Part shown: positions 23,354 to 50,787 of the stretch, in pieces
How positions within the stretch are numbered: the stretch's first letter is position 1
How the letters are laid out: each line of letters begins with the position of its first letter
Assembly: GCA_046563655.1 (NCBI GenBank)
Contig: CM102286.1
Coordinates: 10,416,001-10,480,000 of the forward strand
Direction of reading: 5' to 3'
Source: Yuukianura sp. NJ FZ-2021
Lineage: Eukaryota
Length of the DNA stretch: 64,000 bases
The notes under the pieces: generated by a model
Told to the model about the DNA's origin: nothing
The model's input: only the letters and a program-made list of their open reading frames with translations
The model's database searches: none
Made by a program: the position numbers and the translations under genes

Positions 23354-24969
23354 CGCACCACCAATAACATTCATAACATTTTCCTAACTTTTTTTTCAGT
23401 TGCTACAAGACACCGGAGTTGCTTGGAATGGCTCCTACGAACCGATGCCAATTGAATCCGACAAAATTGGCTACACTTTCCGTGCAGAATACTTGGAAGA
23501 TACGAACGCCAGCATATGCTGGGAATTGTTGCTATGGCACTTGACCAACAGAATCCGACTTCCAGAAGATCGGCTTAATCAAATCGCAGCAATACTTAGT
23601 GTTGCTGCCGACTCGGTAGCAAATACCGGCCCAGCAAGTTTTCACGCCAAATTGAAATTTGAACTGGAAGAAGCGGGAATAAAGGAGAGCATTCCTTCTC
23701 AACACCATGCAATTTCAGACACTTTGGAAAAATTCAAAATCAAAATGATGGTTAACTATGTTTACAACGCAGAGGAAGCTCCAGGCAGTACAGATCACAC
23801 ATGCCACTGTCATCCAGCAGCCTGCTACTTTCCTGAACTCCCTTCATCAGGGGCCGTCAGAGTTCAAGGTCACTCGGTTCAAATTGAAACTACAGTAGGG
23901 TGTAGGATCGGATCTTACGGCCATTTATTTTTAGCTCAGCCGCGGGGGCTAGTCGGGCGCAATATTGGGGAGGGGAAAACCCCTCAAAAAATACATAATC
24001 ACAAAATCTCAACATATAAAATGGCAAAAAGTCAAAAATGCCAACAACAAGAAAGGCCGACATCAATAAGGTCGACAACAAAAAAGTCAAAACACAAGTA
24101 TTGAAGTATTGGAATTTTTCATAGAAAATTCGAAAAGTTCTTTTCAAAACAACTTGTCACAAGAAAAAACGTTTTTTGAAAATATTTTAAAATAGCATTC
24201 AACCATTGTTTCGATGGCTACTTAAACAGCGAGCTCTGATTCTAGAAATCGTCAGTTCTGAACTTAGTAGTGGAAATTACAACATTCCTACTCCATAGCC
24301 ATTCTCAAAAGATGGAATTGGGGAGGGGAAAACCCTCAAAATCTAAAAAGTTTCCAACGACAAAACACTGACAAAAATATCAACATCAAAAATATCAACA
24401 ACAAAAATGTCAACAACGAGTACACTGATGAATCTAAATATTCATCGTTTATCCCAGCAAATACACCGTTTAACCTGACAAATTCAACGATTACCCTGAG
24501 AAATCCACTGATCAACCTAACAAATTCGCTAAATAACTTATGAAAATGGCCGCCTACGCTAATCCCTTTGTTGTTCAAAATTATTGAAAGCTGTCTCTAA
24601 CCGTATGAAACCGTATGTAGCCGTCTGTAACTGACTACGACGCTTCCGGAATCTATTTTTTAGAACTCGCATACACTACGCCACGTTCCCGGCCGCCGTG
24701 AAAACTTCAGAATTTGCTAATCAAAGTCTCCAGAAGTTCTCCAGTATCAAGACCGCTGTCCAACTTTCCAGATCCCCCAATATTTTAAAAGATGGCTACA
24801 GAGTACAAAGTATTCAAGCTGAAACGCTTGAACACCTCATGGCTACAGCGTTGGATTTATCAAGCCCAGTCCTGGGGGAGCCTTTGGGCCGTGTGAGCCA
24901 GCCTTTGGACGCCAGCCCTTGGACGCCAGCCCTCAATTCGCATGAATTTTTAACGTAATATAACAACTT

Positions 24970-25475
24970 CACTGCATAATACAATGGCCTCTCTACATAA
25001 CACAATGGCGTCTCTGCATAATACAATGGCCTCTCTGCATAATACAATGGCCTCTCTGTATAATACAATGGTCTCTCTGCATAACACAATGGCCTCTCTG
25101 CATAATACCATGGCCTCTCTGCATAATACCATGGCCCAGTTGTATAATACCACAACGTCATTACATAATGCCGAGTTTATTCTGGACAACATAGCGAGTT
25201 TGCGAGAGTAAAGTCAGACTTTGTCAATGTCACGGGAACTTACTCCGTGAGTACACCTTTGCAGAGTTCTTCCTCGGAATTATTTCCCGCAGGTAACCTT
25301 CCTTCGAGAGTCAGATCATCGTCAATACCATGGTCACGTTGTATAATACCATGGTCACATTGTATAATACCATGGTCACGTTGTATAATACCATGGTCGC
25401 GTTGTATAATACCATGGTCACGTTGTATAATGCCATGGTCACGTTGTATAATACAATAACCTCACTGCATAATAC
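24970..25475 (+). repeat. Two 21-bp tandem arrays in the left TIR
   Basis: Units ATAATACAATGGCCTCTCTGC (~24970-25170) and ATAATACCATGGTCACGTTGT (~25323-25475); mirrored at ~28115-28590. Confidence 0.95.
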
Positions 25476-25546
25476 AACATTTTTTGTCAATTTTACATCC
25501 AACCACCACCACCACCACAACCCCAACGTGCCCACCCATGCAAAAG

Positions 25547-25612
25547 TATAAATAGCGACGTTGACTTGCTCATCTCTCAGTTTCATTTCAGACGTTGAGC
25601 TGTGAAGACGTG
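25547..25612 (+). promoter_or_regulatory. Pol II core promoter (TATA-Inr-DPE) at the inner end of the left TIR
   Basis: TATAAATA 25547-25554; arthropod Inr TCAGTT 25577-25582 (A+1 = 25579); AGACG exactly at +28 to +32 (25606-25610). Confidence 0.8.
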
Positions 25613-25648
25613 AAGATTTTACCATCTGGAGCGGTTAGGCTAACAGTC

Positions 25649-27033
25649 ATGGCGCAAAAATACATTCTTGTTCACGAAGACGACTACAACAGTCTACTGG
25701 ATCAGCTTGAGACATATGAGTCTCAGCAAAACAGCCCTTGCAAAAGTTATTTTGGAGAAAAGCAAATCCATGATGGTTTTTTGCCTGATACTAAACCCGT
25801 ACAATACTTACAGCAACATACAATGAACATGTCTCAGAACCGTGGACCAATGGAGCTTCATGAGCGTAATTCGCGAGATTCTGGGAACAACATTCCAATC
25901 GAACTTCAGAATCATATGATGCAAACGGAATTACGCCAGAACTGGGAAAATCAACGGAAGCAAAGGGAAGGCTACGTCAATGTGAACGTTGTAAACGATA
26001 GGCGGTTGAATGATATGTCTACAAGTCACTTTACCGGATGGGATGGTGGACCGGAAAAGTCAGCCAGAAAAACCGAAGACAGATATGACCGAATTACGAC
26101 CTGGTCAGAAAATCCAACGAATGGTTGGTCAAATACTGTGGTAAAGCCGAATGACGCGCTCGAGATACCATTTTCCAAGAGATTTAAAAAAGAATCGCAA
26201 ATAGCGAAAGATGAAACGCCGACAGCGGCACCGACAACTCCACCGTTTACTCTGGACCAGTTTTCAGCTGTTGGAAAACAGCTAGCACAATTTTTTGTAG
26301 CAAATGGTGCAACCTTTGCGAACAATAGCGTTAGTCTGGGTGATGCCAACATACCCAGGAGCGAGTTCGAGGAGGGAATACGAAAACTTGCGGATGGAAG
26401 ATATAAGTTGACAAGACAAATGATTCCTGTCATCGTAGACTTTATGATTCAGACAGGCATTCCAAAATATCTGCTTCCGATCAGCCACCGAGGCTTGCTC
26501 GGTGGAGATGAAGCTAAAAAGCTTTCTAGAAATCGCCCGCACGTGGAAAGTGATGTAGAAAATGAAGAAGAAGATGATGACGAGGAAGACGTGGGGGATG
26601 AAGAAGTAGAAGAAGAAGTAGAAGAAGAGGAGGAAAACGAGGAAGACGAAAGGGATGAAGAAGGGGGAGAAGAGTATAGACAAACTGGAGGAGCTAAACC
26701 ATCACCAGGTCCCATACGACATTATCAATTTCTCCACCAGATGAACCAACACTCCCCTATTATACGCGAGACACTTCTCTCCACAGCGTCTCCTGGTCAA
26801 ATTCTGGGGTTACACAAATGTGTTCAGGACGTAATCCAGGGCAACATTCCTATTGAGGCCACCGTCAAAAATATCTTGAGACCGCATCGATATAAGATTA
26901 AACGTGTTGCAGAAGCTAAAGGATCGATTGAAGACAAGAAAAACTACTTATACAGCACGGCGGGTTCCTGCCAGCTCTTCTCGCTGCCGCATTACCAATA
27001 CTTGGAGAGTTTCTCACTAGCGTAATTTCGTAG
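25649..27033 (+). CDS. Putative Maverick virion-core/accessory polyprotein
   Basis: ATG at 25649 (MAQKYILV); acidic tract; LLGG and QTGG motifs; a ...CVQDVIQGNIPI...ILRPHRYKIKRVA... domain. The -1 frame after 26938-26944 gives KLLIQHGGFLPALLAAALPILGEFLTSVIS* (stop 27033). The unshifted ORF stops at 27025. Confidence 0.75.
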
Positions 27034-27081
27034 AATTATACACCTTTATGACTGTATATTCGTTAGATTCCGAATTTTCAA

Positions 27082-27127
27082 AATAAAAAACTTGAAAATA
27101 GAACTTTTATCGTGTAGTGTGTTTATT
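27082..27127. terminator. Opposed polyadenylation signals between the convergent genes
   Basis: AATAAA on + at 27082-27087 and on - at 27122-27127, within a ~100-bp intergenic gap. Confidence 0.55.
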
Positions 27128-27130
27128 CAT

Positions 27131-27946
27131 TCATTCATTAGCATAGATTCGACAATTTTCAGGAAATATATTATCTCTAATGCGAAACAAATCATTTTGT
27201 CGTTGAGTTAAATCGATGAATAGATATCCATATTGCTTTGACATGCATTCCTTGTAGGCTTCTTCCATGGTTGTATTCTTCTTTCCTCCATTCATTTGAC
27301 GTCCAAGACAAGCTACAAATTGAGAGTCTCGCGGATTCTTCATTAGAGCAATGTAGTGACAGTTTGACGTGATTTCTTTCATATTCCTGTGAAAAAAGTT
27401 TTGCACAAGAATGATGAGTGATACGTTGCGGTGATGCGAAGTCCTTGTGAACGCAGCTCCAACTTCTCCGTTTTTGCCTGCTTCATGCATCAAATCGTCA
27501 AGGACGACGACTGACGGCTTGTCGGTTCCGTCATGCCATTTTTCAGGGAGCCCACGATGAAATTGTATAGTTGGAATCTTGGTCTTCAATTCTCCAAACA
27601 GCGTAGGCTGGAACTCAGTGTAGCAATACATGATACGTTCCAATGGCTCGTCAATATTAGTCTCGATAATTTCGTTTCGTCGTAGAAGTATTTGCTTTAC
27701 AAGGGTGCTTTTGCCGCTCTGAGTCATTCCACTGATGCACATAGTAAACGGTGCAAACAAATGCGGGTCAAACTTTTTCCCAGAGTGTACATGTCGAAAC
27801 ATAGTAGATTTTTCCCGCTGATTCATGCATACCTGAAGCATTTTCGATACTGCGACGCTACTATGACAAGTTAACTTGTGTCGTTTCAATGCGTCCCTTC
27901 GTGAGAATTGTCTGCAGCAAATATCGCACGCTGTACTGGTATCCAT
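27131..27946 (-). CDS. C2H2 zinc finger fused to an A32-like (FtsK/HerA superfamily) DNA-packaging ATPase of Polinton type
   Basis: CDICCRQFSRRDALKRHKLTCH finger; Walker A GMTQSGKS; Walker B VVVLDDLM; FTRTSHHRNVSLIILVQN; KNPRD; YGYLFIDL. Intact 271 aa. Confidence 0.92.
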   Translation of the reverse strand: MDTSTACDICCRQFSRRDALKRHKLTCHSSVAVSKMLQVCMNQREKSTMFRHVHSGKKFDPHLFAPFTMCISGMTQSGKSTLVKQILLRRNEIIETNIDEPLERIMYCYTEFQPTLFGELKTKIPTIQFHRGLPEKWHDGTDKPSVVVLDDLMHEAGKNGEVGAAFTRTSHHRNVSLIILVQNFFHRNMKEITSNCHYIALMKNPRDSQFVACLGRQMNGGKKNTTMEEAYKECMSKQYGYLFIDLTQRQNDLFRIRDNIFPENCRIYANE

Positions 27947-27964
27947 AATGTATAGTCCACAGAT

Positions 27965-29684
27965 TCTTCACGTCTTCACAGCTCAACGTCTGAAATGAAA
28001 CTGAGAGATGAGCAAGTCAACGTCGCTATTTATACTTTTGCATGGGTGGGCACGTTGGGGTTGTGGTGGTGGTGGTGGTGGTGGTGGTGATTGGATGTAA
28101 AATTGACAAAAAATGTTGTATTATGCAGTGAGGTTATTGTATTATACAACGTGACCATGGCATTATACAACGTGACCATGGTATTATACAACGTGGCCAT
28201 GGTATTATACAATGTGACCATGGTATTATACAACGTGACCATGGTATTGACGATGATCTGACTCTCGAAGGAAGGTTGCCTGCGGGAAATAATCCCGAGG
28301 AAGAACTCTGCAAGGTGTACTCACGGAGTAAGTTCCCGTGACATTGACAAAGTCTAGACTTTACTCTCGCAAACTCGCTATGTTGTACAGAATAAACTCG
28401 GCATTATGTAATGACGTTGTGGTATTATACAACTGGGCCATGGTAATATGCAGAGAGGCCATTGTATTATGCAGAGAGGCCATTGTATTATGCAGAGAGG
28501 CCATTGTATTATGTAGAGAGGCCATTGTATTATGCAGAGACGCCATTGTATTATGTAGAGAGGCCATTGTATTATGCAGTGAAGTTGTTATATATTACGT
28601 TAAAAATTCATGCGAATTGAGGGCTGGCGTCCAAGGGCTGGCGTCCAAGGGCTGGCGTCCAAGGGCTGGCGTCCAAGGGCTGGCTCACACGGCCCAAAGG
28701 CTCCCCCAGGACTGGGCTTGATAAATCCAACGCTGTAGCCATGAGGTGTTCAAGCGTTTCAGCTTGAATACTTTGTACTCTGTAGCCATCTTTTAAAATA
28801 TTGGGGGATCTGGAAAGTTGGACAGCGGTCTTGATACTGGAGAACTTCTGGAGACTTTGATTAGCAAATTCTGAAGTTTTCACGGCGGCCGGGAACGTGG
28901 CGTAGTGTATGCGAGTTCAAAAATAGATTCCGGAAGCGTCGTAGTCAGTTACAGACGGCTACATACGGTTTCATACGGTTAGAGACAGCTTTCAATAATT
29001 TTGAACAACAAAGGGATTAGCGTAGGCGGCCATTTTCATAAGTTATTTAGCGAATTTGTTAGGTTGATCAGTGGATTTCTCAGGGTAATCGTTGAATTTG
29101 TCAGGTTAAACGGTGAATTTGCTGGGATAAACGATGAATATTTAGATTCATCAGTGTACTCGTTGTTGACATTTTTGTTGTTGATATTTTTGATGTTGAT
29201 ATTTTTGTCAATGTTTCGTCGTTGGAGACTTTTTAGATTTTGAGGGTTTCCCCTCCCCAATTCCATCTTTTGAGAATGGCTATGGAGTAGGAATGTTGTA
29301 ATTTCCACTACTAAGTTCAGAACTGACGATTTCTAGAATCAGAGCTCGCTGTTTAAGTAGCCATCGAAACAATGGTTGAATGCTATTTTAAAATATTTTC
29401 AAAAAACGTTTTTTCTTGTGACAAGTTGTTTTGAAAAGAACTTTTCGAATTTTCTATGAAAAATTCCAATACTTCAATACTTGTGTTTTGACTTTTTTGT
29501 TGTCGACCTTATTGATGTCGGCCTTTCTTGTTGTTGGCATTTTTGACTTTTTGTCATTTTATATGTTGAGATTTTGTGATTATGTATTTTTTGAGGGGTT
29601 TTCCCCTCCCCAATATTGCGCCCGACTAGCCCCCGCGGCTGAGCTAAAAATAAATGGCCGTAAGATCCGATCCTACACCCTACT
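27965..29684 (-). repeat. Right TIR (1720 bp)
   Basis: Inverted copy of 23894-25616. Confidence 0.97.
27969..28034 (-). promoter_or_regulatory. Mirror-image TATA-Inr-DPE promoter upstream of the ATPase
   Basis: TATA at 28034-28027; Inr A+1 = 28002; DPE at 27975-27971; ATG at 27946. Confidence 0.8.
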
Positions 29685-30876
29685 ACTACAACAGAGCAGT
29701 GGTACTCTACCGGTTTGTATGCTCCGCCTGGCGAAGAAATTTCTGCTAAATTTTCTCAGGCTCCTTACAAAAAATTTGTAATTCAAATTGGAACTCACCA
29801 GGACGACATTTCCAAAACACCGGAGTGGCAACGGTGTCCGGTAATTCTTGTTCGGAAGGATTTGCGTACCGGCGGCACGGAACTTCGAATACGGAATGCC
29901 TTTGGTGGGTTGATCTACTTGCATCAAACCGATACCGGAAAAAAACTAGAGTTGGTCGACCTCACCATTTCAGGGGCCATTTTGGCACCATATTTTGTTT
30001 TGGGCAAAACAACGTTAGATGAGTGGCACCAAATTAAAAATTATGGAACTCTTTGCCCATGGGGAGAACTTGAGACGAAAAAACTCGTTTTAACTCTTCC
30101 TGGCTCACGATTGGCTGAATTGGAAAATCCAATTGAACTTATGGAGTATTGGGATCAAGTGATGGATGCCCAAGCAGATTTGGCGGCAATTCCAAGAAAC
30201 CGACCATACCCAGAACGGCTCTGCGCAGACGTTCAAATTTCTGCTGGTTACATGCACTCTGGGTATCCAATCATGATTCTTACCGATAAATCTGTTGCGA
30301 CTGCGTTGTCAGTGGCCGAATTGAAAGGTGAAGAAGGGTGGGGCTTCTACCACGAAATTGGACACAACCATCAAGTCAATACTTGGACATTTTATCTTGT
30401 CACGGAAATTACAAACAATATGTTTGCTTTGTATGTTTACGAAGAAGTGGTCGGAATAACGCCTGCCAAGGCACGCCCAGATAAATTTGAACCCAGTAAC
30501 ATAAGAAGTGCGATTGAAGCTTGTGCTGAGAGGGGTGCAGACTATGAATATTGGGCCAATGACCCCTGGTTGGGCTTGCTCTTCTACTACCAACTGAAAG
30601 TCAAGTATGGCTGGGACACTTACAAAAAAGTTTTCAAAAATTATCAAACTTTGGAGCCAAAACCAGATTCTGAACAAGACAAGGTGGATACTTGGTTGGT
30701 CCAATTTTCATTGGCGGCGGGAGAAAATTTGACGCCGATGTTCAAAGCCTGGGGAATTCCAGTTCGAGATGAAGCGGTGGCCAAAGTAATCCATTTGCCA
30801 CCGACTGACCAAAATCTCTTTTCACTCATTCACAATTAGTTGCCGGTTTGGCACTGCTAAACTTATATGCAATCCC

Positions 30877-34246: not shown

Positions 34247-35858
34247 CGTAGCAGGTAATTTGGTCGGAATTATTTGGTCGGAATTGAAATGATCGGAGGT
34301 GAAATGGTCGGAAGTGAATTGGTCGAAAAGTGAAAACGTCGGAAGTGAAAAGATCGCATACTAAAATGATCGCATCATGAATTGGTCGAAAAGTGAATTG
34401 GTCGGAAAGTGAAATAGTCGCAACAAGAAAAGGTCGAATCAACAAAATGTCGAAAAGTCATTTTGGTCAGTGATTTGCATGAAATTTATTTTCCAGATTG
34501 ATTTCAGGGTGCTGAACTCGCATCTGCAATCAGATTTAGGCGGACTCCTCAAACAACGAAATGCCTTTAAAGGACACCTACGGGAATTGGTTGATTTTGG
34601 GCCCATTTCGCTTTCTCGCCGTGTAAATTACTGGGCCCAGGATTCATGTGTACTTTGATAACAAAATTGTACTTTTGAATTGCACAATTACCACCTGGGT
34701 TTTATAGTGCACAAAATCCACTTTTCAGGTTTTTACATTGCACAAATTCCACTTTTCGGGTTTTTAAAGTGCACATGTACCACCTTTCGGGTTTTCACAC
34801 TGCACATGTTCCACTTTTCGGGTTTTTTAAGTTGTACACTTAAACTTTTGTGTGGAGGACTGAACCATTTCACAGGTTTTCAGTTTTTGAAATGCACAAT
34901 TTCAAATTTTGCAATTTGTGAATGGTGCACTTGCTTACTTTTGTGTTTTTTATATTGTACAATTTCAAACTTGTCGGTTTTTGATGTTGTACAATTTCAA
35001 ACTATTGAGTTTTCAAGATGCACAATCGTCCACCTTTCGGTTTTTGTGCTGCACAAATTCCACTTTTGCGTTTTTTTGTGCTGCACAAATTCCACTTTTT
35101 CGTTTTTTTGTGCTGCACAAATTCCACTTTTGCGTTTTTCCTGCACAATTCCCGCAATTGGGTTTTGCTTACTGTACAACTCCAAACTTTTGCGTTTTTT
35201 CGTTGCGAAACTGTTAACTCTTACTGCAAACATCGCCCAAGAACACGGTTGCCGAAGCATTTTCCCTATTTTTGCAATTTTTTGAGCTTCAAATCCGCAA
35301 AAAGTTGCCGGAGTTGGACCCCAAGTTGGACCAGTATTTGAAATGACGTCATTTTGAAAATTTCACACAGTTTTCTAAAGGGTTTCATCTAGCTATCCTG
35401 AAAATTTCATCATGTCGTCATTTCAAATACACCCACTTTTGCCGGGGCCCAAAACACGCCGATAATCGAATCCCTTCTTTCCCGCGCCGAAGGCGCGGTT
35501 AGGTTTGGTTAAGTTGACAATAGTGATTAGATTTGTAAGTTAGATTAGGTTACTGAGCTTATATACGCTTTTCATGCAAATCGGAGGCAAGAAATTCAAA
35601 GAAAATCACTAAATTTTGAAATTCTGGATCACCTTCGACATTATTACTTTTCGACATTTTCATGATTCGATCTTTTCTTGTTACGACTATTTCACTTTCC
35701 GACCAATTCACTTTTCGACCAATTCATGTTGCGATCATTTCAGTATGCGATCTTTTCACTTCCGACGTTTTCACTTTCCGACCAATTCACTTCCGACCAT
35801 TTCACCTCCGATCATTTCAATTCCGACCAAATAATTCCGACCAAATTACATGGAATCG
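34247..35858 (-). mobile_element. Foldback-like element, same end family as 20022-20863, opposite orientation
   Basis: ~200-bp inverted arms of 15-bp ggtcggaa subrepeats; ends cgtagcaggtaatttgg ... ccaaattacatggaatcg; TSD actcaac (34240-34246 / 35859-35865); internal ~24-bp tandem array at 34660-35200. Confidence 0.8.
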
Positions 35859-36661: not shown

Positions 36662-39600
36662 ATGTCGCCCTGGACGTTTGTATTTTGTTACATTTGCTTC
36701 AATGTCGCCATTTCCACTCACGCCAAACCCTCTGCCGGTAAGCAAAGTTTTTTTCTAGTTGTGAAAAGATTTGAAATGTAGAACGTTAATTCTTGCGAGT
36801 TTGTCCAGCATAACAGCGTATTTGAATTAACGACCAAAATATTTTAAGATTAATAACCGTTTCTTTCTTTAAAACAAGCATGCGCAGCAAATAGTGTCAG
36901 GCATTGATTTCAAATTAAAATGAAATGTCCATGATAAGATAGAAAACTGATTTCATTTTAAAAATCGCCCATTAAAAAATAATGAAATTGATTAAAAACA
37001 TCAGAAGTTGTTTAATAACGTTTTTGTTAACAGTACAAGATCCTGAAAAATTATTTCCAGCAGCTTCTGTGGAACAAACCGCGAATACAAGCATGCTAGA
37101 TGCAAGGAATTCCAGTACGAGTCGATCCTCTTCATGGGACGAATCCAGTGTAGATGGACCACTTTGGAAAGCGTCGGCGCGTTTGCCGTCTTCAATCAAA
37201 TCCGGAGGAACTGAACAGAGCAGGTACAATATACGTCGAGACGGTAGTTTATCAATTGCTTTAGAAGGTGACTCTAAACAATTCAGCGACTTCCCACCCC
37301 AGCCCAATAGGTATTTTTCATATGGTCCCACTCCTACTCACGGTCAATGGTCCCACCTTAGCAGTCCCACCCAAAAACCCACGGAACTCAAATCCTTTTC
37401 CGTTGTCATCTCCGACGTCGATGTCGTTGGGAGTTACGCACCGCTGGAAAGTTCAAAAGTGACGGACGCCTACTCATCTCTCGGTTGGGAAAGCTACAAA
37501 TTAAGTTCACATAGTATTCATCGCATGAATGCAGCATGGCGCCTAAATCCAAACAGTAGCACGCGTTTATCTGCCGATGACCTCGCCCATTTTTTGTCCC
37601 GCTACTCATCTCCATATGCCCGTCCCGGTTTCAACAAGCTTCCCAGAAATCCTGAAGAAGAGTCTGAAAGTTTAGACGGCTTTTCCGGAAATCCTGAAGG
37701 AAATTTTATGAATACCAACTTTTCAAGAAACTTAAACGGCCAACAAATGTCTCGTTCGGAAAATTCTACTGAGAGAAGATTGATTGAAAGTCGAATTCTT
37801 TCTAACGAGAGTCCTGAATACCGTGACCGAAAGAGTTCCAACAATAGTGAAATCTTGTTACAAGAATTGATGGCTCAACTTGAAAAGTTTGATCTTCAAA
37901 ATGGAAGTCATGCCGAGAATAATTCATTTAGTTCAAGTACTAATGGAGTCAATAACTCACAAATCCTTAAAGACACTCGAATGAACAATCCTCAATCTTC
38001 AAATTCATCAGAAACAGAAATAGATGCGGCCAATTTGAAGAAATTGATGACCCTCCTACTCAAAACGGGAGAATCCATCACATCCACAACTAAAGAAGGA
38101 GCACAAGTTGTCAATATCGTCTTGACACCAAATTCAACCGCACTTGACGAAAACCAAAGGATCCATTTTCTGCAGAATTCATACTTAAAGCAACTTTTAA
38201 ATTCGGCACTCGATGACCCCAGCGTGAGTTCAATCGCTCAACAAGTTGCTTCTTCGCTGTACTCACCCACGCCTCTTGGTGAAAAAAATTATGAAGTTGA
38301 AACTTTAAGTAATTTGGGTTCAGGAGCAACTGCGTGTGCAAATTGCAATCCTGCGGCGGATGTCGAGGTCATGCCGATTAATAACGAGCATTTAATTTCA
38401 AATAATCCACATTTAACGGTGTCTTCGACTCCTGATGGTTTTCCGCTGGCTGGAAATGGATTTCTGAATCTTAATCATCCAAACCTACAATTTCATCAAG
38501 CACTTCATCATCTAGTGATTAATGGCACCGCACCAACAATAGTTAATGCCACTGCTAAAACAAATGTCATCAACGTCTTTGTAATTAATTTTAAAACGAA
38601 TGCTCCGGCTACTCAAAATTTCAAAATTTCAGAAACTACAACACCGCCTCCGACTTCGACGATATTCCCATTCTTAGCTGGACTTAAACCTCCCGCAACG
38701 TTCAACCAACTTAACCAAATTCTTAGAGAAGTAACTCCTCCGCCATTGACAATCACAGCGCAATCCCCCTTTGCAACAATTCCCGAACAGCATCTAGAAA
38801 TTTTGAAACACCGTTTCAAAAATCCAAAACAATCTCCGTCTCACATTACCCCAATAAAACAAGACTTTGCATTATCCCATACTCCTCCTGTGATGAAGGC
38901 CCCTTCACCAGGAAGAATTGACATTTTGGATTTGCTTCCAGACGGTTTAAATTCTTATACAAAAGTTGAAAAAGATGACTTCAGAATTCCATTACCATCG
39001 AATTTGAAAAATTCTGAAGTTACAGACGACACTGACACGCCATTGTCCACACCGGAGCCTGACATTGCTCACCTGAGTTGGATTCTTCATCAAACATATT
39101 CTAATAAGCCTCAACCAAGACCAAGTATTTACCGAAATCGTCTTCTGCCATACCTGTCGCCTTTCCACAACAGTGAAGATGCGCTGAACAATGGAAACTC
39201 AAGACAGCCTTATATGAAATCCCACTTCGAAATTTCGAAAAAAGCGAATCCTAGTTCAATGACTGCTGATGAGCAACCAACCATGTCTGAAAAGAATGAA
39301 ACAGGATTTTATGATTTTTTTGGAACTATTAAACCAATCAGAAACCAGCCGGTGTTAATGGATAATGAAAATTCAGAACGTATCGGAATTGAACCGATCG
39401 TTAAGGGTAAACAGGAGTTTAATGGAACTGGCATGAAGACGCGGGTGAATAAACTTTTGACTGCTTTACGGGTCAATGCAGTTCCAACGTTAGCGGCTGG
39501 GGCTGCTATACCGATACCTCCATTGGCTCCTATGATAGCTTCTGATCATAGTCGTTTACAAAGAAGTGAAAATAGCTCTGCTTTCGCGTTACGATCAAGT

Positions 39601-40560
39601 GACACTTTGAAAGTGGAAAGTGGTTCCTGGTCAAAAGTGGGGGTTGTGCCAGAAATTGGCGAATCTAGCACAAGTGCAGCAACTGTCATTCGTTTGAAAG
39701 CTGATGTGAACGACACTGTCGAGCAGAAACAGTCGCTTGACGAGGGCACAGTTGAAAAGTGGATCAAAGTTGGTGTGATTAGCGAGGAGTCATTCTCACC
39801 TACTTTGAAATCCCAAAATAGTACAACAACGACATTGGCCTTCTCACCACCAGTAGTGAAACCACCAGTGGCGTCTGTGCTTAAGCCACAACTAATAGAA
39901 TCAGCCAACAAAAGAACATTAGAAAATGAATCGGCAAGGGATGTTCCGTTAGTTAAAAATTTTCTTAAAAATGTTCTTGCCAATGAATGGAACATTTCAA
40001 CCACGACCAACACGACCAACGTCTTTTCATTATCCCAACCATTACCACAACATACTTCAGAGTACACTGAAGAAACGTATGATTCTGGCTCATCTTCTTC
40101 ACCAATTTCCTTTGAAGAAGAAGGTACACAACAATTAGGACAAGAATTTGACAAGATCAACAGAACAAAAATAACTCTCGTCTCTCCCACGTTTGAAGCA
40201 GCAATTTCAAAAATTCCCTCGCATTCACAATCTCTAAATCTGAAACACGGAAGCTTTGCTCCCTTGCAGACTTTATCACCCCCGGCTTCTGATCACTTCT
40301 TCGCCTCAAATCTCAATCGAATCTTACCGCTTGATTCCCTTCATCATTTTGAATCAAATTCAAAAGCCAATCGAGTTCCCACCATTTTTGAAAAGAAAAA
40401 ACTGAGAAAGAAGTTGGGAGCCGTTATTCAAGAGGCTACCGCAGCCTACTCTGCCGGAGCTCTGCTTCCAATTTGGTTCCCTGTTCTTCTGGGGAAGTTT
40501 AATTTGGCAATGAATAATGAACTTCCCATAGACCAAACCATTGCTACTGAAAATAGTTAA
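36662..40560 (+). CDS. Large secreted Ser/Thr/Asn/Pro-rich protein
   Basis: Signal-peptide exon 36662-36737 (MSPWTFVFCYICFNVAISTHA) splices in phase to 37034; >1170-codon open exon with hydrophobic patches. May join 40858-42490. Confidence 0.75.
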
Positions 40561-40857
40561 AGTTGTATCGGGAGATTAATTGACTTAGCTCACAGCCTTA
40601 TTGGCACACATCGAAATTCCATTTATCAGATCCTGCCCTGCAAAAAAAATTGCAACAGCTTTCCTTTTATTTAGTGCCGATTTCTGGTAGTGGGAACGGG
40701 GATTCTAGGATAGTTGGGCTATGGGTGCTAATGGTTTTTGTTAACAAACCACTTAAGTATAGATGTCAAGTTATTAATAACAGATTTCAACAATAGACAA
40801 TCAAGTTGACAATTGAGACAAATGACAAACAACGGTCCTTTCTTTATGTTTTGACAG

Positions 40858-42490
40858 AGCAATTAGCACGGACAAGCCCTTGACAAAGGAATTGATGACG
40901 ACTGCTACTGCCGACGAACAATCAAATCCTGACGACTTGTTCCCACCAAACAGAAAACGAGATAATCGACGACTGTACAAGTTTGGTAAAAATACACACG
41001 GGAAATTTGATGACAATTTGGACACTTCTGGAATTGACGGAGAGCATGAAGAACCATTGGTACAATCGCTTTCGGCAATGGCATCCCATTTGATTGAGAG
41101 TCCCGAAGAATCCTTAGAAAATTCAGCTGAAAAAGACGTTTTTCTTCAAGCTCTTCATTTGGAAAATGCTCCACAAAATGATAACATTGGTGAACAAGAT
41201 TCTGAGAACCAAAATAATTCTGGTGGCGGAGAAGATGAGACTGGGGTTACCGGAACTCCGTTTGACCTTGACGAAGATAGTGCAGAACAAAAGGTCAAAA
41301 CAACTCTGACCTCAATGGAATTCGAAAGATTGCGGCCGCAATCTTGGTTTTCAGACAGCATTCTTTCTACTACTCCAAAAGGCCTAACGACATGGAGTGC
41401 CGTCAACGGTGGCGGCATCCACAGTCACAATCACCATGCAAATCTTGAGTTCAAACCTACAGTTCAAAAAATGCCGTTGCCAGAATACGCTTCAGGAATG
41501 CTAGACTTTCAATCTAATCGAATGACCACAACACCAAAACATTCCACCACTACGCCAAAACCATCCACGACAACCACAGCAGCACCAAAGCCTGTAACTC
41601 AAACCGACGCAACAACGACCACAACTGAGCTAACGACAATGGCTAACATAGCGCCTGCGCCTGCCCGACGCAAACCTCCTGCATACACCCGATTTAAACC
41701 GAAACGACCGACGCATGACAAATACATAAAGCCCCAACCGGACAATCTTGTTGCAAAACCAATCGCTTCTGACGAAACACACACTAGGTTTCAATTGGTT
41801 GTACCTGAAAAGAATGCCCAGTATAACCGACCCACAAAACGTCCTCAAGCATGGCCTATGAATCCGAGTACTAAAAATACAAAAACCACTCAAAGCCCTG
41901 TCAAAAAAACACCATTCTTGAGATTCACAAATAAGCCTTTCACTACCATGGTCAAGGCCACTAGGTCACCACCATCTCTTAGCCTAACAACGCCACCTAC
42001 AACAACTGTCAGCACTTCCACGACTGTTGCAAGTTCTACAACCGTTTACCTCAGAGATCCTTATCCCACTCCACTAATTAATGCATTTCCTCTATCATTT
42101 GCAAATATCCCGTTTTTTGATTTTCTTCGAACTCAAATTTTCCCGCGAATTGGGCTGAGTCTCCTCAGCCTAATGGCTTCTTCTCCCCTAATCCTAACGT
42201 TGCTTGGGTCGGGAGTAAGTGGAGTCGTGGGAAGGCGCAGAAGAGATGCCCATACGAATGACAATTTTGAAATTCAGGACGACTTGAGTGACAGACTTCT
42301 AAATTTGGACAAAGTGTTGAATGGGCGTGACAAAATTGTGAATAGGAGACAAAAGAGGAACGAAGATGAGCATCCTGCTGCTATTCTTTCCGCTAAATTC
42401 ACCGCATTGCTTGCAAGACTGCTTAACAAATACCTAGGCATTGAAATTCAAGGAATGAAAAAGAACGGAGAGAGCAAAGTTAAGACCTAA
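40858..42490 (+). CDS. Thr/Pro-rich mucin-like exon with a hydrophobic segment followed by GRRRR (probably the 3' part of the preceding gene)
   Basis: 536-aa ORF after the acceptor ttgacag; FPRIGLSLLSLMASSPLILTLLGSGVSGVVGRRRRD. Confidence 0.75.
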
Positions 42491-46642: not shown

Positions 46643-47581
46643 AAATGTCAAGCTCCGCGCTAAAAGTCACAAAAAACTTAGAAATACTCAAAGAAAAAAA
46701 TATTAATCTGTTTCTTCATAATATAAAGCGTAGCTCTCAATTATGAAATGAATTGAAGCTGTAGTGTAAATAGGTGGGTTAAAATAATAAGTTGAAAAAA
46801 AAATAAATCAAAACTTAATAAAATAAATTTTCGTTAGTACATAATCTCATTGGATTAAAAAAAAGCTCGTGCTTTCAAAATGTTTATTTTATTCAAATCA
46901 AATCCTTGTAATAGTTTTGACCGAAGGCAGTGTCATGAAGTATTCCGTCTTGTTGGGTTATGGTTCGGCGAGTAATTGTGCCTCAACGTCTTTTTATGGT
47001 CTAGTTACTCCCTCTTACCTAATTCTTTCCAGGCACCCAGCGCCCTGAACTCTTCACACACTGCCCTTGACGTGCTCTTCATTTTCAGAAACCGTCAACC
47101 TACCTTGTTATGTCATTATTATGCGACAACAATTTTCAACCTAATGCTAACGGTGGATTCAGTTCTGCACAATAGTTCCGTTTTCTTCTTCTGTCGTAAA
47201 GCGTCCAGTCGTATCCTAAAGAAAACTGTCACACAAAATATTGTAATTTATTTTGAGTTGCACAGCAGGCTTGGGTGACATAATAAGATCAGCGAAACAA
47301 TACGGATAATAAAATATGAGTTTAGCTTAGGAGTTTTGTGTCATTTTAATCCAACTTCAACTTTTAAAGAAATCACGAATTAAATTAAACAAGAAATTGT
47401 TTCAAACAAAGCTTTTACATGTCAGTTGAAAGTTTTTCAAGGTTTGGACAAAGGAAATGTGACACATTTGAATCAACTCTAAGGTAACGTAAATTGACTA
47501 GGACTAAACATAATTAAACGTTGTTAAGTTTAGCCAGTTTCATATGTTTTTGGATTAAAAAACCAAACGTAATAATTTCAG

Positions 47582-50500
47582 ATGAGAAAGAAGCACACGC
47601 CGACAATAGTGAAAGTTGCATTTCAAACCGTTCTGTTAGTATACCTCATTTCACCCTCATCCCTGCTTTCTCCGCCTACACTGGAAGCTGAGGGAGGACT
47701 TCACACAAGCACAGTAAGACCATGGCCCAGTCACGAGTTTTTAGAAGGCTTAATTTCAAACCTCACTGGCTGGAAAAAATCAGGAGCTCTAACAAACAGA
47801 AGTGCTAGAATAACTTCAAACGTTGAACATGACTTAGAAAAAGTACATCAAGTCTCAACTGAAAATGTGTCAAATGTCGAAAATACAAATCCATCAAGCG
47901 ACAAAGTTCTGGAATCAGCACTTACTGTGGAAGTGCCAAATTCCCAAGTGGCTTCAAGAAATCTGGAATTTGATGTAGATTTAAATTCGGGAGAGCTCCG
48001 AATTTTGAATTTAAATTCAAGCTCACGTGGGATATTTCATATCAACACTACACATCATGATTCATCGGAAAGCGAAGTTTTTGTTCAAGACAGAAGTGCT
48101 GCCGACTTTGATGAAACTGGAGATTTGGGTATTTCTACATCAACTACAAGAAATAAAGCCGACGCACTTCAACGACTTGTGGACATTCGAAAATATCGTG
48201 ACGAAAACTTTTCAGCTAACAAAGGAGGGATGGGCGGCATTCATTGGGTGAACGGTTCTAAGCTTCAGCGCCGAATTCAAAATATTCGCAGCATGGCACC
48301 TTCTTTTCGCAAACTTTGGGCCGTGAATTCCTTCGGGATTCCAGCAGGTCCCACTGCGCCAGTTATTCCGTTGTTCACAGGATTACCTCCAAAGGAAACC
48401 GCTCTGGAATCACCTCTAAAGATCTCGGATACTAAAAACGCCCCGCCTGTTCCGCAACGTCACATGGGGCGAATTCCAGCCGTAAGTTTGGGAATTGCGC
48501 CGGTGCGATTGAAGCCAACGGCTGCAAAACCATCAAAATTCACTTCTAAGCCGATTGCTTTTTATTCGTCAAAAGTGGATCTTATACCGGGGCCAACAGG
48601 ATCAAGCTCATTAGAATCCATATTTGACTTTTCCCGGCCAACTCCCGCTCGAACATCCAAAACAAAGCCGAAGCGTCCATTATCGCCTGCAATAGCGGCA
48701 GAAACAGAAGTCGATGAGTTCAAATCAAGCGATGAAGAACCGATTACGACTTCAGCCTCGACTACTGCTGTTCCCACTGTATCAGAAATTCTACTGAAAA
48801 TTTGGTCTTACACTAAAGATGGCTTGAAGCTTCAATTCCTTAAACAAGTTCCATCAGTTCTTTCACAGGGGCTCAATTTAAGTGATGACGATGTTTTAAA
48901 TTTGGAAAGTCTCCCGCTTCAGATGAGAAAAAATGTTGCATCTGCTTTCAATCTAACCAACTCTATAAGCAAAAGACACAGTGGACCTGGTGACTTTGAA
49001 GCATTTCATTGGCAACAACTTCCAAGCGTCAGTCCTAGGACGACATCAACAACGACACATTCCCCTTCCATACTGCGCCGTTCGCGATGCCACCGAGGCA
49101 AGTAGCCCTCAATTATATAATTTGGTCAACGCCAACAACGACGCCAGCACCTCCCTCCACGACGCACTCCCAACTACTGGCAGACGCAATTGCCAATCTT
49201 TTGTTAAATGCACCAGTGATAAATTCGACACCAATTTCCATATACTCTTTGAATTCTCAAGATTCAGGTTTGTCACTTGAACATTGTTTTTCAAATTTTA
49301 AATTTTAAATCTGTTAGTTTTTTCTTGTTTTGCGTTAAGTTTTGAAACTTTTTTCATTCTTTTTAGGCTTGAACAAAATAAGCGAAAATGAATTAATGAC
49401 AAAAGTTGCATCGATGGCTCACATGATCTCAAAAATTAACAAAGAATTTGGAACACGGAAACCTTCCAAGCATCAACTTAATCCAGAATACGGTAAACCA
49501 TTAAAGAATTCTGAAAGTAATCAAGAAAGTAGCGTTGAAACGCCTACTGGTTTGGCAACTCTTTTTCCAATGTACATCAATAGTCTCAAGTTCACACAAT
49601 CTGCAATTAGCGGTGATCGATTCCCACTGCAAAGCCCAACCGCGCCTTCACGACCAATCAGAGGAACTGAAAAATCTGTCATTTCATCACAGTCGAATGA
49701 CTACGGATTCTATCCTCACTCGGCTCCAGGAGGCATTGTTACTAAAACCCGACCTCTTACATACACGGATGACTTTTCCTTGAAGAATATTAGGAAAAAA
49801 TTAAAGAAGAAAAAGAAAAGGAAAAGGAAGAATTCCACTAAGGCTTCGACGTTTTGGGATCCCGGAAATTTTGACTTGAACTACAGTTTTGGAGTAGACT
49901 TTCTTGCAGCGTTGCGAAATATATTTTATACAGTTTTGGCAGTCAAAGCGGCTCCGTGGATTCTCTTGGCGCTGCTAGCAATTATACCACTAGCAATTGT
50001 AGTATTTCCGACAATTTTCAAAGGAGCGAAACTCGCAGAATGGATTTGGAGAATCTTACATCCGGCTACCAAAATTCATCACCACTACTATCCACACACC
50101 TTCAAACACGTCCACCATCGACCGATCTACGCAGGATGGTCACCAGCTCACGCTGGATGGGCTCCACCACAGCCAATCTACAGCGGATGGTCGCCAATAC
50201 CACGCTACCGCGGATGGTCGTTTCCAGCCCACAGTGAATGGTCGCCTCCATCTAACAGCGGATGGTCGCCTCCCCGTTACAGCAGTTGGTCGTCAACGCC
50301 AGGCCCCATTGGGTGGTCTCCACCAATTTACAAAGGATGGTCGTCTACGCAGAGACCAAGATATCGTGGATGGTCACGACAGAAAACACACCATCGTAGA
50401 ATGGAGGATTCCAGTGATGACGTTGTTCCAAGCATCAGTTCACTGGTGGAGGAAACGTATGGACAACAAGAGACTTCAATTGACGATCAACCTACTGCTC

Positions 50501-50787
50501 ACCATATAGAGGATGGTCAACTGACTACAACGGCGTACTCGCTGGATTCCGCCGAACTTGATACTCTTCACAATCGCAAAGTAATGGAAATTCTAATGAA
50601 TGCCAAAAATATTACGCTACAAAAACTGCTGGAAAGTTGGGAGTTGGAATTCCCACTGCCAAGCAAAACGTTGGGTGAAAGAACCATCGATCCTGGAAGC
50701 GAGGGTGAACGTAAACGAAAAAAGAGGAGCCTGTGCACTCGCAAAAAGCGAGTGTTGCAAATTCCTGCCTCAACAACAGTTACTTAA
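47582..50787 (+). CDS. Large secreted/membrane protein with poly-Lys tract, TM helix and GWSP repeats
   Basis: Signal-like N-terminus; frameshift near 49070; intron ~49268-49366; KKLKKKKKRKRK; APWILLALLAIIPLAIVVFP; HHHYYPH; about 10 (G/S/E)W(S/A) repeats. Confidence 0.7.

Follow-up and report, generated by a model that had tools for sequence, protein, structure and literature searches.

Maverick/Polinton elements carry AGT/ACT end motifs and are flanked by 6-bp target duplications (PMC8097293; this and the other publications below are cited from excerpts, to which our statements about them refer). The polintons of butterflies have terminal inverted repeats (TIRs) of ~2 kb that hold the whole hexon and adenain genes, and their polB-less variants are still flanked by TIRs (bioRxiv 10.1101/2025.02.07.637071). 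In maize MuDR, the convergent genes mudrA and mudrB are transcribed from promoters within the TIRs, and failed termination between them gives rise to antisense RNA (PMC3440606). The A-repeats of adenovirus are bound by its packaging ATPase, IVa2, as is a downstream promoter element (PMC5033970). We analyzed a stretch of 64,000 nucleotides of Yuukianura sp. NJ FZ-2021 (GCA_046563655.1, contig CM102286.1, positions 10,416,001 to 10,480,000; hereafter the window, in whose own numbering all positions are given) that contains a 5,791-bp element at 23894–29684. From its inverted repeats, its termini, and its content of only two genes, we classify the element as a non-autonomous Maverick/Polinton (adintovirus-type) derivative. 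The reading that we favor, with a probability of roughly 60%, is that this 5.8-kb element inserted recently and that the promoter native to its ATPase lineage reached the second end by copying, so that the two genes would be driven together.

The element resembles Mavericks/Polintons (adintoviruses) in its A32-type ATPase, its GasderminX-like module, its long TIRs starting with AGT, and its short target duplication; the features that place it among them are the packaging ATPase of A32/FtsK-HerA type and the long TIRs with AG(T) termini. Unlike them, it has no polymerase, integrase, capsid, or protease genes, it is only 5.8 kb long with a duplication of 5 rather than 6 bp, its ATPase carries an N-terminal C2H2 finger, and its second gene is a fusion of two modules. 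We searched the 64-kb window by tblastn with the polymerase fragment and the integrase of a metagenome relative (L003) and found no match to either, and there was no rve Pfam match in 5 + 15 open reading frames (ORFs). For capsid proteins and an adenain-like protease there is no ORF, no room in the element, and no Pfam match, a capsid profile not having been run over the whole window. Because the element is without a polymerase, integrase, or capsid gene, we regard it as a non-autonomous Maverick/adintovirus derivative, and because L003 unites a polymerase-like fragment (with a YTDTDS motif), an ATPase, and an rve integrase (E 3.8e-9), in that order, we regard the family as Maverick-like.

As in butterfly polintons, the kilobase TIRs of the element extend into functional sequence, and an insertion without polB is still flanked by TIRs; unlike in those elements, in which many genes are kept, the TIRs end at position +38 of the predicted transcript, and the promoter and leader alone are duplicated. 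The element is also like MuDR in having two convergent genes with predicted promoters and starts within the TIRs, which is the working principle put forward in an initial annotation of this locus. TIR promoters that drive convergent genes are thus already known from MuDR and are not new in principle. The likeness is one of working only and not of membership, as MuDR belongs to an unrelated superfamily, lives in plants, and has a MURA transposase that binds within TIRs of ~215 bp and no packaging ATPase; neither the ORF list nor Pfam revealed a MuDR/Mutator transposase in the element. Our searches of the literature on the promoters of Mavericks/Polintons listed no report of TATA/initiator/downstream-element or TIR-borne promoters, and the word "promoter" does not occur in the adintovirus paper (PMC8502044).

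The initial annotation, made from the letters alone, had placed a TATA box, an initiator (Inr), and a downstream core promoter element (DPE) in both TIRs, and direct reading and a pattern scan confirmed these words in both arms. The TATA box TATAAATA lies at 25547–25554 on the plus strand and at 28027–28034 on the minus strand, with its first T at −32 in each case. The initiator TCAGTT (25577–25582, plus; 27999–28004, minus) places the proposed A+1 at 25579 and 28002. The DPE AGACGT(G) occupies +28 to +33(34) (25606–25612, plus; 27969–27975, minus); within it, AGACG covers +28 to +32 (25606–25610, plus; 27975–27971, minus), and the next letter is a T, so that the longer consensus RGWYVT is also satisfied. 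The consensus of the initiator is TCAKTY around A+1. In Drosophila, the upstream T of the TATA box lies at −32 to −28 and the strictly spaced DPE, RGWYV(T), occupies +28 to +32/33 (PMC5580651). The element has TATAWR and RGWYV(T) at these positions as well as a TCAKTY initiator, and it thereby resembles Drosophila-type TATA+Inr+DPE core promoters in having all three consensus words at their consensus positions; the consensus is that of Drosophila and may not be the host's. The geometry had been called canonical for insects: it does fit the published Drosophila rules, but "insect" was an assumption. DPE-type internal promoters with AGACGTG presumably also occur in Drosophila non-long terminal repeat retrotransposons.

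The arrangement is rare by chance. A strict composite pattern (TATAAA, 22–27 nt, TCAGT, 24 nt, RGWYV) matched twice in the window when both strands were scanned, and both matches are the TIR copies. Over 300 first-order Markov shuffles, this pattern was found 0.007 times on average (at least one match in 2 of the 300), and a relaxed composite was found 0.01 times (matches in 3 of the 300). Because the two copies are a single duplicated sequence, the composite counts as one independent occurrence.

The inverted arms that bear the predicted promoter are not short: each measures ~1.72 kb, and the promoter takes up only the innermost ~70 nt. The left TIR spans 23894–25616 (plus; 1,723 nt) and the right TIR spans 27965–29684 (minus; 1,720 nt). 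With the right arm reversed, positions 1–1723 align with positions 1–1720 at 94.4% identity with 16 gap openings, and the differences lie within tandem arrays. Complementarity is 100% in a block of 441 nt, 98% in one of 340 nt, and 99% in one of 276 nt. The innermost perfect arm comprises 115 nt at 100% (25502–25616 and 27965–28079), and, as annotated, homology stops at 25616 and 27965, 4 nt past AGACGTG. Both termini of the element read AGTAGGGTGTAGGATCGGAT and begin with AGTAGGG. The TIRs account for 59% of the element's length, and the 2.3-kb interior is filled by two ORFs; no further copy of the TIR was found in the 64-kb window. The positions given earlier for the start codons and poly(A) signals were also correct. 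The first ATG on either side, at 25649 (plus) and 27946 (minus), opens its ORF, and neither 5' leader (70 nt on the ORF2 side and 56 nt on the ATPase side) contains an upstream ATG. The two stop codons are separated by a gap of 105 nt, in which the AATAAA signals are opposed: that of ORF2 lies at 27082–27087 (plus) and that of the ATPase gene, 3 nt past its stop codon, at 27127–27122 (minus).

We compared the sequence upstream of the ATPase start in four of five metagenome relatives (L001–L004); the fifth, L005, was excluded as a truncated ATPase fragment. L002, whose ATPase is 59% identical to that of the window in the best segment, has TATAAA at −32, TCATTC, and AGTTG at +28 to +32, in DNA that cannot be aligned with the window, and the full geometry did not appear once when its upstream 250 nt were shuffled 20,000 times. 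Conservation of the motif spacing among related elements, on which the initial annotation had staked its proposal, is full in L002 and extends to the TATA/Inr part in L004, but it is lacking in L001 and L003. At the level of sequence, the TATA/Inr/DPE geometry is conserved in part of the lineage of finger-bearing ATPases, and this partial conservation fits a native ATPase promoter. The ATPase of L003 has no finger and lies directly behind the polymerase gene. A search of viral contigs for further relatives gave none with a single protein and three distant loci (26–29% identity) with an alignment, and a search of genome contigs gave none and then two distant loci (30–33% identity); all of these were too divergent to be included in the promoter comparison.

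In L001 and L002, the two closest relatives for which downstream sequence is available, the ATPase and the segment that we call module A form one ORF (527 and 508 aa, respectively), the only fused forms among the 77 homologues found (2/77). In the window, the ATPase and module A are separate convergent genes, split exactly at the domain border. Because the two parts are one ORF in L001 and L002, identical promoters on the split genes would preserve their joint expression. The predicted complex of the ATPase with module A scored 0.04 against a mark of 0.34, which gives no verdict on their binding.

The minus-strand gene (27131–27946; 271 aa, intact) encodes a C2H2 zinc finger followed by a genome-packaging ATPase of A32 type (FtsK/HerA class). 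It matches Pfam Pox_A32 at E 1.8e-5, with 24.8 bits where the cut-off is 22.8, and the C2H2-like finger gives a weak Pfam match (E 0.011) that falls under its cut-off. Among 326 candidates, 76 were homologues at E ≤ 0.001, the best with 74% identity and many with PF04665. In a 19-row alignment, the protein retains every one of the 21 invariant columns, including those of Walker A (G78, K79) and Walker B (D150, D151), and six relatives have an N-terminal finger of the same kind. A search of PDB sequences with the ATPase profile gave nothing below E 0.027. One of the runs whose contigs we compared with the window (X2, which bears a second organism label) also has short contigs that are ~80–88% identical to parts of the ATPase gene (27152–27755), beside a copy of ~99% identity, and its organism therefore has further diverged copies of a Maverick ATPase.

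The plus-strand gene, ORF2 (25649–27025; 458 aa as written), comprises module A (residues ~1–295), an acidic linker (~296–345), and a GasderminX-like module B (~355 onward). In Pfam and PHROGs it gave only low-complexity matches under the cut-offs, and a word-indexed search found no homologue at E ≤ 0.001 among 6,313 candidates; an exhaustive search found 22. Residues ~190–290 match the part that extends the ATPase C-terminally in L001 (E 6e-17) and L002 (E 1e-11) as well as stand-alone proteins of 131–255 aa, and residues ~355–430 match proteins of ~110 aa and a small ORF beside the L003 integrase (E 2e-15). These matches identify ORF2 as a mosaic in which an unnamed Maverick module A is fused to an adintovirus GasderminX-like module B. 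GasderminX is described as a homologue of the gasdermin regulatory domain with a pX-like C-terminal part, typical of the virion modules of Beta-class adintoviruses (PMC8502044). We built a family model of module B (first row P0081, with the window segment as a row of the alignment) that reached a predicted local distance difference test score (pLDDT) of 90 and matched the BFVD entry "GasderminX [Terrapene box turtle adintovirus]" at E 1.4e-6, with template modeling (TM) scores of 0.90/0.92 and 32% identity. Module B is accordingly modeled with the helical fold of GasderminX, and a hydrophobic C-terminal tail of pX-like character is predicted; the model matched nothing in PDB at E ≤ 0.001. Some of the GasderminX-like relatives of module B (P0080, P0093, P0087) carry an acidic linker and, N-terminally, a zinc finger of C2H2 or FLYWCH type, and zinc-finger tagging of Maverick accessory proteins and ATPases seems to recur. 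The model of module A had a pLDDT of 63.8, with residues 200–290 confident; it gave no BFVD match at E ≤ 0.001 and no usable Atlas match. A comparison with 48,161 PDB representatives yielded a best Z of 4.5, with weak cyclin/TFIIB-like candidates and adenovirus capsid chains at Z 3.4–3.8, none of which we accepted.

Of seven sequencing runs, none was listed as RNA, and contigs of four (X1, X2, X6, and X7, all DNA) were compared with the window. In run X2, the interior of the element is ~99% identical, with 13 and 6 differing letters over 25502–26796 and 26807–27963, respectively; none of the 40 differences listed, of 45, falls within 25502–25838. The reading frame of ORF2 is broken in the window near 26938, in a homopolymer run, and the conserved hydrophobic tail of module B can be read in another frame at 26941–27033. 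The homopolymer (26934–26940) differs in length by one letter between the window and the contigs of all three covering runs (X1, X2, and X6), and at this point the run contigs would lead on into the frame in which the conserved tail is readable. Either an assembly error or a private allele probably accounts for the break. The coding repeat of the acidic linker, which is GAA-rich, is unstable, varying by 12-nt units at 26593–26599 among the window, X1, and X2.

Upstream of the promoter, the TIRs contain tandem arrays with 15-, 14-, and 21-nt units and a (CCA)n / (GGT)n run. Array B has ~8 copies of a 21-nt unit (24972–25139, plus; mirrored at 28436–28579), and array C, 72 nt upstream of the TATA box, has ~6–7 copies (25324–25475, plus; mirrored at 28139–28248). 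The core ATAATAC[AC]A[TC], common to both arrays, is confined to the TIRs within the window, with 13 occurrences in the left one and 12 in the right one. Three diverged elements (that of the window, L002, and L004) have tandem arrays with a period of exactly 21 nt upstream of the ATPase promoter, with unrelated unit sequences; as 21 nt correspond to two helical turns, the period suggests phased protein binding. An Rfam scan of 23500–30000 gave no matches. IVa2 we take to be homologous to the element's ATPase and of the same broad class. As at the left end of adenovirus, where the inverted terminal repeat and the A-repeat packaging domain precede the E1A start, the repeats of the element lie between the terminus and the first predicted start. 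Unlike those of adenovirus, they are 21-nt units and stand at both ends, and the part that binds DNA would be the added C2H2 finger.

The element lies within a host gene. It is flanked by exact copies of ACTAC at 23889–23893 and 29685–29689; the duplication is exact at 5 bp, and the corresponding 6-mers differ (AACTAC and ACTACA), against a reported Maverick length of 6 bp. Target duplications of Mavericks/Polintons measure 5–6 bp. The broken host exon, on the plus strand, belongs to an M60-like peptidase gene, with its left part at 23388–23893 and its right part at 29690–30839. Pfam finds M60-like_N (E 4.7e-17) and Peptidase_M60 (E 1e-63) in the right flank, and because the match to M60-like_N begins at profile position 14, this domain is cut by the insertion. 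When the element and one copy of ACTAC are removed, the host frame is open for 551 codons. The open joined frame and the split M60 domains place the element within a coding exon of the peptidase gene, which is knocked out in the present assembly. The locus thus bears the signature of a true, fairly recent transposition. The nearest Atlas clusters of the M60-like (enhancin-like) host protein are all bacterial, with Verrucomicrobiota the commonest, and the gene may have been acquired horizontally by a eukaryote.

We propose that the innermost ~70 nt of each TIR act as an RNA polymerase II core promoter, with the TATA box at −32, TCAGTT, and the DPE at +28, and that this is most likely the native promoter of the lineage's ATPase gene. 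It would have reached the other end by extension of the terminal repeat or by copying of one end onto the other, up to +38 of the transcript. With the repeat copied to this point, the two genes would have the first 38 nt of their leaders in common and would be switched on together; transcription is predicted to begin at 25579 and 28002, the two genes would be co-regulated, and both transcripts would end at the opposed poly(A) signals, ~40 nt apart. Convergent read-through might also produce dsRNA, as the initial annotation suggested. The simplest course by which the TIR could have come to include the promoter is a copying of one end onto the other that reached +38. Such copying may be compared with the repair or extension of terminal repeats in protein-primed linear replicons, and adenovirus has defective genomes with enlarged inverted ends. 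The initial annotation had gone further and held that the inner boundary of the TIR is defined by the promoter. This claim we do not uphold, as there is a single junction and an end-copying event that halted at +38 explains it equally well. The motif observation of that annotation is confirmed, and its interpretation is partly supported.

Several observations weigh against our proposal. The DPE rules derive from Drosophila, and because the host gene lies on the plus strand, read-through into the element is possible. In L004, TATAAG stands at −32 and TCAATT follows, but a DPE is missing; the pattern used for L004, a loose one widened post hoc once L004 had been viewed, was also matched by 44 of 20,000 shuffles. 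The geometry is absent upstream of the ATPase in two of the four relatives, L001 (143 nt available) and L003, and L002 and L004 are not fully independent of each other, because they have upstream sequence and a record prefix in common. The frame break in the window copy of ORF2 also belongs here, as does the comparison with run X2: among the differences listed, 11 of 12 differing codons in ORF2 alter the residue, so ORF2 is possibly under weak constraint. In favor of the proposal, three of the four differences listed in the ATPase gene are synonymous.

Part of this evidence would suit an alternative that we consider possible but unlikely, in which only the promoter on the ATPase side works and the copy on the ORF2 side is an accident of replication or recombination that copied one end onto the other, as happens in defective protein-primed linear viruses. 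In that case ORF2 would be a passenger in decay, and no functional meaning would attach to the end of the TIR at +38. The broken frame of ORF2 and its share of residue-changing codons relative to X2 (11/12, versus 1/4 in the ATPase, among the differences listed) agree with this alternative, as do the composition of ORF2 from modules that stand alone in relatives and the position of the promoter geometry in those relatives, where it precedes the ATPase gene and not the genes for module A or module B. However, the one-letter homopolymer difference in the contigs of all three covering runs means that the break may stem from faulty assembly or from a private allele; the leader of ORF2 is free of upstream ATGs, the frame opens at the first ATG, and the differences from X2 lie mostly in the linker and acidic stretches. 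We regard it as improbable that the element is a satellite-like "mini-Maverick," a parasite of full-length Mavericks of the defective-genome type that keeps exactly what encapsidation needs. The parts kept would be both ends and ~25 copies of the 21-nt repeat core, which lie between the terminus and the start site and are comparable to the packaging A-repeats of adenovirus, together with the element's own packaging ATPase, whose C2H2 finger would read the 21-nt repeats, and a core or membrane-active accessory protein. One strong TATA+Inr+DPE promoter would fire both genes, and the halves of what is a single polypeptide in the relatives would be made together.

Two further explanations were considered. 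It is quite improbable, in our judgment, that the motif match is without function and that the element is silent or is transcribed by host read-through or from starts within the repeat arrays. The host gene does read on the plus strand into the left TIR, and the arrays contain many TATAAT-like words, but the match is expected only ~0.01 times per window by chance, it is correctly placed 56–70 nt ahead of two first ATGs, and L002 has the same geometry in a different sequence, where it was not reproduced in any of the 20,000 shuffles. It is scarcely credible that a fold-back chimera, an artefact of assembly, produced the inverted duplication. Long-read assemblies can create palindromes, and at least one homopolymer error is probable in the window; yet the number of repeat copies is not the same in the two arms (94.4% identity, 16 gap openings), the interior is not palindromic, a 5-bp duplication flanks the element within an otherwise open host frame, and the unique interior is covered by contigs from runs of two organism labels, which end where the arms begin, as they would at a true repeat.

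The window contains other features of note. A second, unrelated small element of ~1.6 kb (34252–35852) has inverted ends of 210 nt (96% complementary) made of GGTCGGAA-like repeats and encloses an ORF of 207 aa without a Pfam family. Very long open frames at 36976–40560, 40826–42490, and 47576–50787 (up to 1,194 codons) gave no Pfam family at E ≤ 0.001.

The near-identical arms, the exact target duplication, and the disrupted host coding exon speak for recent activity of this element. Mavericks/Polintons are thought to be integrated viruses, and the transcription of their genes in animals has hardly been described. A two-gene derivative in which a single textbook core promoter is duplicated would offer a compact natural system for testing how such elements are expressed and whether a cut-down element can carry its own packaging enzyme. 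It would also allow one to ask whether small-RNA silencing is fed by convergent transcription from the TIRs, as in MuDR.

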